Positions 20,733 to 25,874 of a stretch of DNA of 25,874 bases are shown one piece after another. Under the pieces are notes generated by a model. The model saw nothing but the letters and a program-made list of their open reading frames with translations, had not been told where the DNA came from and did no database searches. Position 1 is the first letter of the stretch, and each line of letters starts with the position of its first letter. The DNA is from Promethearchaeota archaeon (GTDB lineage Archaea; Asgardarchaeota; Lokiarchaeia; Sigyniarchaeales; SOKP01), in assembly GCA_048938895.1 (NCBI GenBank), contig JBHLLU010000053.1, positions 1,563 through 27,436 on the forward strand, in the 5' to 3' direction. Made by a program: the position numbers and the translations under genes.

Positions 20733-21974
20733 GTGGCTAAGGCTGTAGATGTAAAAATTAAAAATGGTTTTGCCGAGGGTGAAGCTTACTACTGCCCAGA
20801 GTGCAAAAGAACACACACTAAAGGAAAGATTTATAAAGAGCATTTAAAATATGCCCAAATAGAAGAAAGTGGAGTGGAAAGCGAAAATGATGATTATGAT
20901 GACGAAAGTGAATTAATTGAAGCTTTTAATGAATTAGAAAACGAAGATATAATTGATGAGATAGAAGATGAGTCAACATCAGATGAACTCGAACCTGATA
21001 GCATTGAAGATATCGCAATTTCTACTACTGAGGAATGTGTTCAAGCTGTAAAAAATCTACCTGGAGTTGGTGAGGCAACCCTTAATAAACTCATTAAGGC
21101 AGGATTCAATAGTCTTGAATCAATAGCTTATACTCCACCCTCAATAATAAGGGAAGAAAGTGGTCTCGGAGATAAAACTACTGAAAAATTGATAAAAGCA
21201 TCAATGGAACAATTAAATATAGGATTTAAAAGTGCGGATGCTATCTGGGAGCATAGAAAGAATATTGCGCGAATTACAACTTCTAGTCAGGAGTTAGATG
21301 ACTTATTAGGTGGGGGAGCAGAGACAGGAAGTGTACTTGAGTTTTTTGGAGAATTCAGGACTGGAAAAACACAGATTATGCATCAATTGTGTGTGAATGT
21401 ACAACTTCCAAAAGAGAAAGGAGGACTTGAAGGAAGAGCATTATATATTGATACAGAAGGAACGTTTAGACCAGAAAGAATTATTCAAATGGCCGAAGGT
21501 CTCGATTTAGATTACAATGATGTATTGAAAAACATTGTTTTTGGAAGAGCATATAATTCTGATCATCAGATTCTTTTAATTAAAGAAGCTACGCAGATAA
21601 TAAAAGAAAAAAATATAAAATTAATTGTAATAGATTCTCTTATTGGGCATTTTAGAAGTGAATACATAGGTAGAGGTACATTGGCAAACCGACAACAAAC
21701 AATTAACTCTCATCTACACGATTTGCTAAGATTATGCGATATTTATCCCGATTTAGCAATTGTATTAACAAATCAGGTCCAAGCAAAACCTGATGTTTTC
21801 TATGGGAATCCCTTGCAAGCTGCAGGAGGAAATGTTGTAGCTCATGGGTCAACTATCAGAGTATATCTAAGAAAAGGTAAGGGAGAACAAAGAATTGCAA
21901 AAATTGTTGATGCTCCTCATTTACCAGAAGGTGAAGCCATTTTTAGTATTACAGAAAGTGGGATATCTGATTAA
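20733..21974 (+). CDS. radA: DNA repair/recombination protein RadA with an N-terminal Zn-finger and acidic extension
   Basis: HhH N-domain (LPGVGEAT...AGF), FKSA polymerisation motif, Walker [22 protein letters not shown], Walker [16 protein letters not shown] and TNQV. Confidence 0.96.
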
Positions 21975-21988
21975 AAAACCCGAGAGAA

Positions 21989-22507
21989 TTAAATTTTAAT
22001 TTTCCATCCTTCTTTTTGCGTAAATTCTATCGTTCCCATCTTATTCATTTGATTTATTATTAAGTTAATTACTTTTTCAGAAACTGTAATTCTTTGGTTT
22101 GCAGCATATTCTAAAACCTTATCAGTTAATAATTTTAAGGTTTCAATCGATTTTTCTTCGTATAAAATTTTTAAAACAATTTTTTCTATCTGATTTTTTA
22201 TCTTTACTGGAATTAGGAATGATTCCTTTCTGGATCGATCTCCGCTAAACGCACTTTCTTCCCTATTTAGATCAGGTTGTTCGATTATAATTGCTTTAAA
22301 TTTAACCTTTTTATGTTCTTCTTTTTTTAATCCTATCTCTTCACCATTTTCATCTTTTTCTTGCTCTTTTTTTTTATTTCTTTCTCTAATATCAGCCTTT
22401 TTTCTGAAGAAAGAAAAAATAGTAAAGATTAATAGAAACATTAGGGAGATCGAAGTTGAAATCAGCATTACTATTTTAAACCTGACGACATTATTGAATG
22501 GATACAT
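21989..22507 (-). CDS. Membrane-anchored hypothetical protein with a C-terminal winged-helix-like domain
   Basis: N-terminal hydrophobic helix (IVMLISTSISLMFLLIFTIFSFF) followed by RKK, a charged linker, and a helix-helix-helix-hairpin pattern (IEKIVLKIL...VSEKVINLIINQMNKMGTIEF...GWKI). Confidence 0.65.
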   Translation of the reverse strand: MYPFNNVVRFKIVMLISTSISLMFLLIFTIFSFFRKKADIRERNKKKEQEKDENGEEIGLKKEEHKKVKFKAIIIEQPDLNREESAFSGDRSRKESFLIPVKIKNQIEKIVLKILYEEKSIETLKLLTDKVLEYAANQRITVSEKVINLIINQMNKMGTIEFTQKEGWKIKI

Positions 22508-22670: not shown

Positions 22671-25600
22671 TTATATAAGTTTCTCATACTCTTTAGATTT
22701 ATTTGAAAGTCTCTTAACTTCTTTTGTCATTTCAGTTCCACCTAACTTGAATATTTCAGAAGCTATTTTGGAAGACATTTTATATTTTTGAGCAGCCTCG
22801 TTATAATTTTTTTCTTTAGCCGCCAATTTTGCTTCTTTTTCAAGATTTTTCATCTTAATACCCAGATCTTCTATTTTGGTTGAACGTATGAATTCATTTA
22901 GTGGTTCTACTTCTCCTATTAACTCCCAGGTCGTTGCTATATTTATTGCATTTTGGCAAATATTAATCGTTCTGGTATAATCCTTCTCTTTTCTAGCATT
23001 TTTTGCAATCTTCTTCAAGTTTTTAATCTCTTTCTTTGCTACTTTGATATTATCTATCAATGTGGTTCCTGGTTTTTCCTCAATTGGCGCAGATATGATT
23101 TCATGCTGTTCCGATAAGCTTACAAAGTATGCTTCTCTTTCAGCGGGTCCCATTTGAGCAAGATCATTTGCTAATTTCTGTTTTTCTTCTTGAGATAAGT
23201 TTACTAATTGATTTATTTTTTGATTAATAAGGTTTAACTCTTGTTGAGAAATGGGTTGAGCTTCAATAGCTCCTATTTCTATTGGTATCAACATTTTCTT
23301 ATCTCTTAGCTCTTTGATTCCCATAAAAATTTCTGCTGTGTCTTTATTGGTTTTTTCAGATGCCTCTTTTAGAAGTGTTGCGATAAAAAAGAAATTTCTT
23401 TCTGATTCTTTCATCATGTTATTCGCAACTTTTAATACATCTTTTGAGTGAGGATTCTTTAAAGCTTTAACATTTGAGTAGTCATATGTAATTTCATGAG
23501 GTAAAATTATCGAAGTGCTTAATAATTCATCAATCATAGTTCCTGAATCTCTGAATATATTAAGTTGTCCTCTCCAATTTGGGAGATCACCAGAATATGC
23601 TTTCTCAAAGCTATCTATAAATTCCATTAAATTTTTGCGTAATATAATTGAGGCTTTTTTAGATAACACTAAAGCAACCCTTATGAATTCTCCATCTGAC
23701 AGTAATAACATTTTATCCCCATAATTAATTTCGTTCAATTCTTCCTGACACACTAGATCTTTTCCAAAAGAACAAATAGCTGATATAAAACCACTAATTA
23801 ATTCTGGATCAATACCTTCTGAACCAAAGGATTTAAAGTAAATACATGTGCCTGTCGCTTTATACAACACTAGAATATGTTCTAAATTAATTGCATCGTC
23901 AAATATTGTTTTTACTTCTTTTAAAACTCTTGATTTCTCCCGTTTCTTTGGAACTATAACACCACGATACACAGCAATAGAACCACCAGCAACAGCTAAG
24001 GCAATCCCAGCAATAATTATATAAGGCATAAGATCTTCTAGATTTAAACCTGAAGGCAATGGATTAACATCAATGTCGGAAATCATTGAATTATAACTAT
24101 AGTGATAATACTCTTCTTGAAGTTCAATGCTGACATTCATATTTTTTGCATCACTTCTTACAGTTATTTGAAATGATACTCCTCCAGTGGCATTTGTACT
24201 TTTGGTCTGAATTTCTGTCGATGCTAATCCATTGAAATATGGTGTAATTTGAATGTTAGTTCCTGAAAGAGGAAGCCAAACTGTTCCATTGAAATACTCG
24301 GCGTTAAGAATTATAGTTATTGAATCCCCTGCGTCAACTTCTGTTGGATTTTGAATATTTACTCGTACCTGATATTTTTCTATTACTGTCAAATTAAATG
24401 CAAAAAATGTAGATTCATAGTTTGTCTTAGTTAACGTTATGTTTACTAGATAATTACCAGGGGTTAAGGCAGTGTTTGAAGTAGTTATTTGTCCCATATG
24501 TGTTCCATAGGATACATTTTGATAGACAAAATGCAGAGTATTCAACAGAGATCCAGTATCTGGTGTGAAATAACTATAATACCATACATTATATGAATTC
24601 GCACCACCTAAAACCATAGCCTCCCCAAATTCCAGATCAGTTAAGTTAAACTCAATGTTAATATCACTTCCTTCAAAAATTGTAAAATTGTAGTTTGCAC
24701 TTTCAGAGATTAATATACCACTAGGATCAGACATTGAAATCAAATGGATTTTAGTATAATTCCCTCGTAGATAAAATTGAACATAAACTATATCCCAATT
24801 GTAATTAGGGAATTTGGAAACATTAACCTGTAAAGTGTAAAATCCTGAAGTAGCGCCAATTGTACTTATATTTAATTTATAATTTCCGTCTCCTGGGCGA
24901 TCAAATAATTCAAAACCCGGACTCCATACAATACCGCTAATATTATTTTTAACTTTTATATCGCTATCTGTTATGTCTGTAATTGGTTGGTTATTTGTCG
25001 TATCATTGAAATAGAAATCAATAGAGATATTAAACCTTGTACTTCGTGCAAAATCATCAAATTCATTCCATGATTGAATACTAATTTTTGTCTCGATTAT
25101 GGTTACTAAAATTGTAAAGGAGATTTCTTGTGGTTGATTACCGAATTTATATATTGTAAAATTGATAACATAAGCAACTTCAGATACAATTACATTAGTA
25201 GTGTTCAACTCTAATGTGTAATTTCCTCCTCCTTCATTTACAAGACTCCATTGAAATCTTTGTAAATTTGAGGAATTCTGGAATGTGTCATATGTGTCGA
25301 TAGGGGTTCCCAATCTGTCTGAATAGTTAAATTCATAGAATACACTATTACCTCTAATCACTTGAATTAAAGAAGGGGGATTTGGTGGAGTAAGTTGCGT
25401 TAATATCCGTCTCTCAAAATTAAGAGTTCTTGTGAGATTAATAAATTTAGATTTGTTTGCTCTTATGATTACATTAACACTTCCAAAATTTAAACCAAAA
25501 TCACTATCATTAGCATTTATAGTTATATTATAAGTACCATCATAGTTATCTAAAACATTATCACTTCTATAACCTGTACCATTGAGTGTGTAAGTAATAT

Positions 25601-25874
25601 TGGCATCAACAATCCCTGCGGATTGAGTATGGTCCATATATTCAATTTGAATATCAAATGTTTCACCTTCTACATATGAAATTATTCCAGTAGGTTCAAG
25701 AATCGTAAGTGTCGTATTTCCGATTACTAATTCTTCTAAAATATAATCAGCTAGATAATAGTTGGATTTAGTTACATTAATTTTGATATTATATTTTCCA
25801 TAATTACTAAATATTGAATCACTACAGTCTATTGTAAAATTATAATATCCTATTCCAAAAGGAATGATCGTAGT
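22671..25874 (-). CDS. Large single-pass surface protein (5'-truncated): Ig-like beta-sandwich repeats, TM, longin-like domain, winged-helix-like domain, MIT/TPR-like helical bundles
   Basis: The frame stays open for 79 codons upstream of the ORF-track Met, up to the window edge. It has beta-rich repeats of about 100-110 aa with many N-x-S/T sequons, a TM helix at about 23952-24023 followed by PKKREK, and a cytoplasmic LEHILVLYKATGTCIYFKSF...DPELISGFISAICSFGKDL segment. Confidence 0.8.
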   Translation of the reverse strand, partial: TTIIPFGIGYYNFTIDCSDSIFSNYGKYNIKINVTKSNYYLADYILEELVIGNTTLTILEPTGIISYVEGETFDIQIEYMDHTQSAGIVDANITYTLNGTGYRSDNVLDNYDGTYNITINANDSDFGLNFGSVNVIIRANKSKFINLTRTLNFERRILTQLTPPNPPSLIQVIRGNSVFYEFNYSDRLGTPIDTYDTFQNSSNLQRFQWSLVNEGGGNYTLELNTTNVIVSEVAYVINFTIYKFGNQPQEISFTILVTIIETKISIQSWNEFDDFARSTRFNISIDFYFNDTTNNQPITDITDSDIKVKNNISGIVWSPGFELFDRPGDGNYKLNISTIGATSGFYTLQVNVSKFPNYNWDIVYVQFYLRGNYTKIHLISMSDPSGILISESANYNFTIFEGSDINIEFNLTDLEFGEAMVLGGANSYNVWYYSYFTPDTGSLLNTLHFVYQNVSYGTHMGQITTSNTALTPGNYLVNITLTKTNYESTFFAFNLTVIEKYQVRVNIQNPTEVDAGDSITIILNAEYFNGTVWLPLSGTNIQITPYFNGLASTEIQTKSTNATGGVSFQITVRSDAKNMNVSIELQEEYYHYSYNSMISDIDVNPLPSGLNLEDLMPYIIIAGIALAVAGGSIAVYRGVIVPKKREKSRVLKEVKTIFDDAINLEHILVLYKATGTCIYFKSFGSEGIDPELISGFISAICSFGKDLVCQEELNEINYGDKMLLLSDGEFIRVALVLSKKASIILRKNLMEFIDSFEKAYSGDLPNWRGQLNIFRDSGTMIDELLSTSIILPHEITYDYSNVKALKNPHSKDVLKVANNMMKESERNFFFIATLLKEASEKTNKDTAEIFMGIKELRDKKMLIPIEIGAIEAQPISQQELNLINQKINQLVNLSQEEKQKLANDLAQMGPAEREAYFVSLSEQHEIISAPIEEKPGTTLIDNIKVAKKEIKNLKKIAKNARKEKDYTRTINICQNAINIATTWELIGEVEPLNEFIRSTKIEDLGIKMKNLEKEAKLAAKEKNYNEAAQKYKMSSKIASEIFKLGGTEMTKEVKRLSNKSKEYEKLI

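Follow-up and report, generated by a model that had tools for sequence, protein, structure and literature searches.

A putative surface glycoprotein of a Lokiarchaeial archaeon with a membrane-tethered longin fold and tandem MIT/TPR-like bundles

Longin domains, small GTPases, and the ESCRT machinery are the main arguments for the presence of trafficking toolkit parts in the archaeal ancestor of eukaryotes. Eukaryotic longins precede a SNARE motif or sit in a soluble coat or guanine-nucleotide exchange factor complex. MIT domains occur in Vps4/CdvC, MITD1, and katanin p60, and in tandem in LIP5/Vta1 and calpain-7. Archaeal S-layer-type glycoproteins with a C-terminal transmembrane anchor, to our knowledge, stop a few residues past the transmembrane helix. 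Here we describe a gene of a Promethearchaeota archaeon whose product is probably a very long surface glycoprotein that continues, past its single predicted transmembrane helix, into a conserved tail with a longin-fold domain, a winged-helix-like domain, and two helical bundles resembling MIT and TPR domains. The gene lies at the end of the window, by which we mean the whole analyzed stretch of 25,874 nt (assembly GCA_048938895.1, contig JBHLLU010000053.1, positions 1,563-27,436 of the forward strand). The four folds are known; what appears new is a membrane-tethered longin-winged-helix cassette extended by a tandem MIT-like module.

Longin domains of Asgard archaea have already been counted and partly solved, and longin-GTPase fusions have been reported in Lokiarchaeia (PMC10933270, PMC4917890). 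The text of Makarova et al. (2024, mBio, PMC10936438) describes ESCRT-related multidomain proteins of Asgard archaea, in which Vps28-C is combined with adaptin appendage, longin, TPR, IG-like, and HTH/PCI domains. Our protein shares with these its lineage and the domain vocabulary of longin, IG-like, HTH, and TPR, whereas the proteins in that text are defined by a Vps28-C or steadiness-box domain and the window gene has no Pfam VPS28 match. A Vps28-C domain in the tail was accordingly rejected as a candidate, the genome's VPS28 matches lying elsewhere (C51:114718-115284 and C85:63152-63421). A transmembrane-tethered longin is mentioned neither in the passages of PMC10936438 considered here, whose asCOGs may overlap with our family, nor in those of a 2026 structural-cluster preprint (10.64898/2026.10.28.762692). 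The literature searched contained no description of a transmembrane-tethered longin tail, a search that did not extend to the figures and supplements of PMC10936438 or to the asCOG tables it cites, which may list the family. A first-pass annotation of this DNA had suspected that relatives were already catalogued. They are, but only as hundreds of "hypothetical protein" entries.

We are highly confident of the following order of parts: ectodomain, transmembrane helix, juxtamembrane helix, longin, winged-helix-like domain, small helical module, and duplicated MIT/TPR-like bundles. Their positions are listed below, with tail residues numbered within the cytoplasmic tail and P0001 denoting the part of the protein encoded in the window.

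22671-25874, minus strand: surface-protein gene, C-terminal 1,067 codons plus stop; open reading frame with its 5' end off the contig
C35, L003:3-2531, minus strand: N-terminal 843 codons of the surface protein, overlapping the window part by 25 codons
24030-25874, minus strand: the portion of the putative ectodomain encoded in the window (P0001 residues 1-615), with beta-rich units of ~100 residues and 28 N-glycosylation sequons
23952-24029, minus strand: single transmembrane helix (P0001 residues 616-641), predicted by Kyte-Doolittle hydropathy, followed by a lysine/arginine-rich flank
23886-23951, minus strand: juxtamembrane helix (tail residues 1-22) in the AlphaFold2 model; the most conserved segment, continuing from the membrane
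23502-23885, minus strand: predicted longin-fold domain (tail residues 23-150), from AlphaFold2, Foldseek, and VIA
23262-23501, minus strand: winged-helix-like domain (tail residues 151-230), from a separate model and VIA
23109-23246, minus strand: three short helices forming a small module (tail residues 236-281), from AlphaFold2
22872-23048, minus strand: first of the two three-helix bundles (tail residues 302-360); carries a TPR/MIT-like hairpin signature
22674-22871, minus strand: second three-helix bundle, MIT-like (tail residues 361-426), from VIA and profiles

A single minus-strand frame reaches the end of the window, which is also the end of the contig; it encodes 1,067 residues, is open at its 5' side, and stops at 22671-22673. 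The gene is split over two contigs within its repeat region. The first 77 bases of a 3.2-kb contig of the same assembly (C35) are identical to the window's last 77, and the C35 piece opens with an ATG, a basic stretch, and a hydrophobic signal/anchor segment. Seven orthologues of 1,840-1,914 residues are colinear with both pieces across the joint, their residues 1 to ~800-860 matching the C35 piece and the window piece matching from ~781-838 onward. Because these full-length orthologues align colinearly, we take the joint to be real and the whole protein to be ~1,885 residues long.

Within the window part, Kyte-Doolittle hydropathy reaches at least 1.6 only at P0001 residues 610-642 (core 616-641), and the 15 residues after this helix contain seven lysines or arginines compared to none in the 15 before it. 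NxS/T sequons are similarly lopsided, with 28 of 30 in the ectodomain and two in the tail, and the C35 part adds 33. Since the single transmembrane helix, its charged flank, and the distribution of sequons fit together, the N-terminal part is likely outside and N-glycosylated and the 426-residue tail cytoplasmic. The protein as predicted from its sequence is thus probably a single-pass type I surface protein, heavily N-glycosylated. The first-pass annotation had described this open reading frame with its repeated N-terminal region, one transmembrane helix at ~23952-24023 with positive charge inside, and a cytoplasmic tail of ~420 residues. All of this held up: the helix spans 23952-24029, the predicted topology is not inverted, and the segments of the tail lie within a few codons of where they had been placed.

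The repeats themselves were recovered in two ways. The ectodomain contains tandem units of ~100 residues. Searching with a profile of a single unit recovered five complete or almost complete copies (i-E 1e-25 to 3e-36) and part of another; BLASTP of the C35 piece against the window piece gives 28% identity over 238 residues (E 1.7e-21). Neither Pfam nor NCBIfam returned anything significant in the ectodomain. Its neighbors in the ESM Atlas are archaeal Big_3_5, MG4, and Big_1 clusters (score 0.90-0.91), and weak Pfam matches among 44 relatives fall in the same families (MG4 in two, Big_3_5 in one, Big_1 in one, and Big_1 also in a paralogue). The ectodomain therefore probably has an immunoglobulin (Ig)-like, beta-sandwich fold. 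With its predicted N-terminal signal/anchor, its long, beta-rich, repeated ectodomain full of sequons, and a single C-terminal transmembrane helix, the protein resembles archaeal S-layer-type glycoproteins. Unlike these, it adds a conserved multi-domain cytoplasmic tail of 426 residues.

This tail was modeled with AlphaFold2 from a 44-sequence alignment (mean predicted local distance difference test [pLDDT] 89.1, predicted template modeling score 0.73). The model contains a helix at residues 2-22, a beta-beta-alpha-beta-beta-beta-alpha segment at 23-118, helices and strands at 136-229, three short helices at 236-281, and five helices at 302-425. Pfam and NCBIfam gave nothing above cut-off in the tail, and an ESM Atlas search with it returned unnamed Promethearchaeota clusters only.

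Directly behind the juxtamembrane helix, the model has longin topology, with strands at 23-30 and 35-41, a helix at 49-61, strands at 72-77, 80-86, and 90-96, and helices at 102-118 and 136-149, mostly at pLDDT above 85. The Foldseek rows listed for the tail are longin or roadblock chains (COPI zeta, AP sigma, VAMP7, Sec22b, LAMTOR, Mon1-Ccz1, Fuzzy, TRAPP; best E 4.6e-4). In VIA the best-fitting chains included Sec22b (1ifq_B; Z 11.7, root-mean-square deviation [rmsd] 3.1 Å, 126 of 128 residues aligned), a Lokiarchaeota Roadblock-Longin protein (8yqg_B; Z 10.9, rmsd 3.5 Å, 131 aligned), and AP sigma, zeta-COP, TRAPP, and SRX chains (Z 9.6-11). A longin fold after the transmembrane helix, which the first-pass annotation had proposed, is thus strongly supported in the predicted structure. 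A GATOR1 Nprl2/3-like architecture was also considered and rejected; its Foldseek alignments were long but poor (TM-score ~0.2, rmsd 18-24 Å), and it was absent from the 50 VIA rows listed.

Compared to eukaryotic longins (Sec22b, VAMP7, Ykt6, sigma-adaptins, zeta-COP, TRAPPC1/C4/sedlin, and the SRX domain of SRalpha), the domain has the same beta-beta-alpha-beta-beta-beta-alpha-alpha order, at Z 9.6-11.7 and rmsd 2.8-3.5 Å over 117-126 residues. Unlike them, it belongs to no detectable shared sequence family, is tethered to the membrane, and sits after the transmembrane helix without a SNARE coiled coil. No Pfam or NCBIfam longin family matched the tail or any of the 44 relatives scanned, among which the sole roadblock-family match was weak (MAPKK1_Int, E 0.0028). 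The order of a longin-SNARE (longin, SNARE coiled coil, C-terminal anchor) was not found either: the transmembrane helix precedes the longin, and a SNARE motif is absent. The Lokiarchaeota protein 8yqg shows that an Asgard longin domain of equal structural similarity exists. By its title, however, it is a roadblock-longin fusion without ectodomain, transmembrane helix, winged helix, or helical bundles, and it is only 11% identical in structural alignment; no paper on it was found in the literature search.

The next domain was examined in a separate model of tail residues 125-300 (pLDDT 85). VIA rows over residues 146-229 are nearly all winged-helix domains (Z 5.7-8.2, rmsd 2.2-3 Å, 57-77 residues), among them the TbtB RRE (6ec8_A; Z 8.2, rmsd 2.3 Å, 77 aligned), winged helices of the Cdc6/ORC group (Z 7.2-7.8, with Cdc6 1fnn_B at Z 7.8, rmsd 2.6 Å, 71 aligned), and that of MCM (Z 7.0). 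Because Foldseek with the same model gave no match at E≤0.001 (best E 0.59), support for a winged-helix-like domain at residues 151-230, another proposal of the first-pass annotation, is only moderate. The short helical module and two helical bundles that it had seen at the end of the tail correspond in the AlphaFold2 model to three short helices and two duplicated bundles, the last of which superposes on MIT domains. No fold match was obtained for the three-helix module; VIA rows barely covered residues 236-281, so that there is no evidence of a new fold. A profile of this module matches only the window gene in this genome.

Conservation is concentrated in the tail. Among 28 loci from public Promethearchaeota metagenome-assembled genomes, the tail is 50-89% identical, whereas the best segment of the ectodomain reaches 30-60% identity in all but one of the 26 loci with a match, and 85% in that one. 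Mean pairwise identity across the 28 orthologues is 0.85 in the juxtamembrane helix, 0.80 in the longin, 0.75 in the winged-helix-like domain, 0.72 in the last bundle, and 0.60, the lowest, in the first bundle. The gene radA is adjacent in 25 of the 28 loci, that is, in every locus with downstream DNA (the other three end at most 422 bases past the gene), and a PGI-like gene is present in 24. In its family, the surface-protein gene behaves as a single-copy orthologue with conserved synteny beside radA.

Beyond the family, a word-indexed search with the tail found 163 homologues at E≤0.001, all unnamed or "hypothetical" and with varied ectodomains, and an exhaustive search found 1,119 representative clusters. 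A relative of 2,640 residues is encoded by the cultured Lokiarchaeum ossiferum (WP_371805894.1). The first-pass annotation had suggested surveying the architecture across Asgard genomes, and this survey found a tail match in 182 of 201 sampled genomes, including 84 of the 85 of high quality. Matches to at least 400 of the 426 tail residues were obtained in 32 of 41 genomes of the gene's own family and two of three of a sister family. In other lineages, the matches listed cover residues 1 to ~230 only, except for three rows that reach 312-325. These ~230 residues are the longin-winged-helix cassette, which in other lineages lies at the C-terminal end of open reading frames of ~700-2,000 residues. 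A complete cassette was present in 223 of 249 retrieved homologues, and 211 of the 216 having upstream sequence carried a transmembrane-like segment at most 45 residues upstream. The reach of the cassette over 182 of 201 genomes, together with soluble paralogues of the tail, gives defined units: the longin-winged-helix cassette, the tandem bundles, and the soluble tails. In proteins P0107 and P0117 and one member of alignment A1, the tail stands behind a caspase (Peptidase_C14) or CHAT domain and not behind Ig-like repeats. In protein P0056 (1,865 residues), the tail (1124-1543) is followed by additional sequence and then by the terminal bundles once more (1725-1865).

In the genome itself, the cassette profile finds 42 open reading frames. 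Nine are single-pass proteins built like the window protein (eight besides it, with unrelated ectodomains), and five are multi-pass proteins of ~6-7 transmembrane segments with a longin-type domain right after the last one; the transmembrane-longin-winged-helix cassette thus occurs in at least 14 membrane proteins of the genome. The set also includes many small soluble longins and one longin-GTPase fusion (C53:57529-58416). Two soluble paralogues of 457 residues, L067 and L068, carry the whole tail (longin, winged helix, and tandem MIT-like bundles), with a cysteine-rich N-terminal motif in place of ectodomain and transmembrane helix. The positions of the multi-pass proteins and these two paralogues are as follows.

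C44:22431-24638: multi-pass longin protein
C53:77192-78811: multi-pass longin protein
C95:7258-8748: multi-pass longin protein
C33:96318-97424: multi-pass longin protein
C33:97518-98612: multi-pass longin protein
C118:3331-4701: soluble 457-residue paralogue L067
C95:14014-15384: soluble 457-residue paralogue L068

No Pfam or NCBIfam family reached its cut-off on the multi-pass paralogues, one of which is weakly MFS-like (MFS_1, E 1.7e-6, below cut-off). Their layout recalls the transporter-to-longin/roadblock signaling of eukaryotes. A stand-alone longin-like open reading frame of 127 residues lies ~400 bases from L067, and L068 lies ~12.5 kb from vps4 on the same contig. The C-terminal half of a further 300-residue protein, L080 (C51:109521-110420), matches the profile of the terminal bundles (E 1.2e-10); its gene is ~4.3 kb upstream of the one for Vps28 (C51:114718-115284).

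In the model of the terminal part of the tail, the five helices at 302-425, after a flexible linker, build two bundles with a long helix (345-379) common to both. The two go back to a duplication within the tail (hhalign 89.8%, E 1.8e-6, with 41% identity in 32 columns). In VIA the last bundle superposes on the MIT domains of Sulfolobus CdvC (2w2u_B; Z 10.2, rmsd 1.3 Å, 69 aligned) and VPS4A (2jq9; Z 10.2, rmsd 1.6 Å, 64 aligned), on 4a5x_B (Z 10.0, rmsd 1.5 Å, 66 aligned), and also on MITD1, katanin p60, SKD1, and LIP5. Some sequence evidence points the same way: the bundle profile finds the Sulfolobus CdvC MIT at E 0.028, and the paralogues L067 and L068, which it matches at E 3e-10 and 1.3e-13, score against Pfam MIT (PF04212) at the corresponding place with 23.5 and 17.1 bits (E 5.8e-5 and 0.0058), below the curated cut-off of 30 bits. 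Pfam MIT was further found in one of the 44 relatives (E 0.0036), and 18 of 120 listed homologues of L067 have a precomputed PF04212 match; five of the listed homologues are named TPR repeat protein by one source. The tail therefore resembles known MIT proteins in bundle size, in rmsd (1.3-1.6 Å over 64-69 residues), and in tandem duplication. It differs from Vps4/CdvC-type proteins in lacking a Pfam MIT score, in its five helices with one common to both bundles, and in having no AAA ATPase or protease attached.

What might such a tail do? It most likely has a function of its own and reads best as a docking platform, because the whole tail also occurs in soluble form, the longin follows the last membrane segment in five multi-pass proteins, and the cassette lies under eight other single-pass proteins. 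That the tail is a platform recruiting partners is the more probable view, by a modest margin of belief. Kept on the cytoplasmic side of the membrane, the longin-winged-helix cassette directly under the transmembrane helix would offer a flat docking or dimerization surface, as longin and roadblock domains do elsewhere, and the terminal bundles could bind a short helical peptide belonging to a partner in the cytoplasm. For this partner, the C-terminal tail of ESCRT-III, invariant in the lineage, would be the most specific candidate; MIT-type bundles of Vps4 bind ESCRT-III tails. The genome encodes Vps4 and ESCRT-III, and in 18 orthologues of the latter the last residues (E207, K210, L211, K213, E214, and L215) do not vary. 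The coat at the surface, or whatever this coat touches, would thereby be coupled to membrane remodeling or to sorting and turnover of the coat. We tentatively prefer this membrane-held docking platform as the best overall explanation, well aware that it falls short of being probable. The vps4 gene stands at the start of its contig (C95:248-1453), and the genome has a single Snf7-family gene (C75:89133-89783) where most family genomes have two; the second copy was probably lost at a contig break.

Several results weigh against this reading, beginning with the bundles. Designed helical bundles and TPR proteins reach the same Z of 10-11 as MIT domains, and VIA itself warns that Z below ~13 for helical bundles may mean a common arrangement only; because unrelated bundles score alike, the MIT superposition indicates fold and nothing further. 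Pfam MIT had no match to the window tail at E≤10 and none in a six-frame search of the genome, and when the bundles were compared by hhalign to the MIT domain of this genome's Vps4, the probability was just 8-41%. The strongest sequence matches of the bundle profile are not MIT domains but consensus TPR designs, found via a common hairpin signature. For the TPR label the signals are mixed: the design match has E 1.9e-10 overall but ~0.2 per repeat, Pfam TPR_2 was found in three of the 44 relatives, and alignments to TPR domains over 111-124 residues reach no better than rmsd 5.6-9 Å. We therefore call the bundles MIT/TPR-like, since structural and paralogue support for MIT stands against failure at the sequence level in the window tail itself; on the model, they are candidate peptide binders, and membership in the MIT family fails by sequence. 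The genomic context is no more favorable. The gene lies outside any ESCRT locus, its neighbors being radA, the PGI-like gene, and aspartokinase, and none of the 15 sequencing runs listed as containing the stretch is recorded as RNA. Across the 201 Asgard genomes, the presence of the cassette and of ESCRT-III is not tightly coupled, because family f22 (cassette in none of seven, Snf7 in seven of seven) and family f16 (two of seven and seven of seven) have ESCRT-III but little or no cassette. ESCRT-III as the partner of the tail is therefore doubtful.

The first-pass annotation had gone furthest in proposing a surface sensor or adhesin tied to small GTPases or remodeling machinery as a proto cargo receptor. 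The folds and the topology behind this idea stood, while its function stays a proposal: GTPase neighbors are not enriched, Pfam MIT is unmatched, and co-occurrence with ESCRT-III is loose. A broader version, in which a phylum-wide class of Asgard membrane proteins, both single-pass glycoproteins and multi-pass transporter-like proteins, signals or is sorted via one juxtamembrane longin-winged-helix cassette, with tandem MIT domains recruiting ESCRT-III to the coat in the Lokiarchaeial member, is improbable on present evidence. Were it true, it could represent a prokaryotic forerunner of cargo-receptor/adaptor coupling, with surface cargo wired to trafficking-type and remodeling modules before endomembranes. 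Should the bundles bind ESCRT-III, the surface coat of Asgard archaea would be linked to membrane remodeling, protrusions, or the release of vesicles; should they fail to, the protein would still probably be a major surface component of uncultured Lokiarchaeia and a marker for cryo-electron tomography and proteomics. Either way, a longin fold predicted to lie directly beneath the plasma membrane, in the tail of a very large and conserved surface protein, gives a concrete site where trafficking folds meet the cell surface.

The alternative that survives best, though we consider it somewhat unlikely, is that of a structural coat protein, glycocalyx- or S-layer-like, whose tail merely anchors and spaces the coat through self-association of the longin-winged-helix part or a cytoskeletal tether, with no signaling or sorting. 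A very long, sequon-dense, repeat-rich, and fast-evolving ectodomain is the pattern expected of a dominant surface protein, and so is consistent with this view, as are the single-copy, syntenic state of the gene, its near-complete tail in most sampled family genomes, and its place beside radA. Longin and roadblock domains commonly dimerize, and 8yqg, the Lokiarchaeal longin structure, is called a dimer in its title. Yet a tail of five modules and 426 residues, conserved at 50-89% identity, far exceeds the needs of an anchor. The complete tail of L067 and L068, soluble and free of ectodomain or membrane helix, argues for a function of its own, and the longin of the five multi-pass proteins likewise counts against a role confined to the coat.

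A receptor-coupled GTPase platform is clearly unlikely. Here the juxtamembrane longin, alone or dimerized upon clustering of the ectodomain, would recruit or regulate a small GTPase, and the bundles would be a generic TPR-like scaffold. Platforms of longin or roadblock domains for GTPases include TRAPP, Ragulator, Mon1-Ccz1, and the SRalpha-SRbeta pair, and the fold matches of our longin do include synbindin, sedlin, TRAPP subunits, Fuzzy, and the SRX domain of SRalpha (Z 9.6-10.8). Small GTPases are known to be expanded in Lokiarchaeia; this 4.65-Mb genome has 96 Ras-family matches, and in at least one case a longin from the same profile family is joined to a GTPase (the C53 fusion above). 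However, fold alone does not imply GTPase binding, as longins of SNAREs and sigma-adaptins bind other things, and the 44 relatives scanned showed no sequence membership in a GTPase-regulating longin family. Gene neighborhoods did not support the idea either. Compared to expectations from 500 randomizations, five of the 42 longin-family open reading frames lie within 2 kb of a GTPase gene (4.7 expected) and eight within 5 kb (8.5 expected). For the 14 membrane-bound members, these counts are one and two (1.7 and 2.8 expected), and the window's contig has no GTPase gene at all.

That the gene is an assembly chimera or in decay, its domain resemblances due to chance, is hardly credible: its division between two contigs inside repeats could suggest as much, but the colinear full-length orthologues over the joint, the homologues returned by both tail searches (163 and 1,119 clusters), the high-confidence AlphaFold2 tail model, and the conserved synteny all speak against it.

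Two neighbors of the gene deserve mention. Downstream and co-directional with it is a small open reading frame.

21989-22507, minus strand: open reading frame of 172 residues, with an N-terminal transmembrane segment, a highly charged linker, and a small domain at the C-terminus

This frame matches no Pfam or NCBIfam family and is kept at the same position in 19 of the 28 related loci. Beyond it, on the opposite strand, the RadA/Rad51 gene (20733-21974, plus strand) encodes an N-terminal extension of ~100 residues before its HhH and ATPase domains, in which an acidic stretch is accompanied by what may be a small zinc-finger motif (zf-met, E 0.2).

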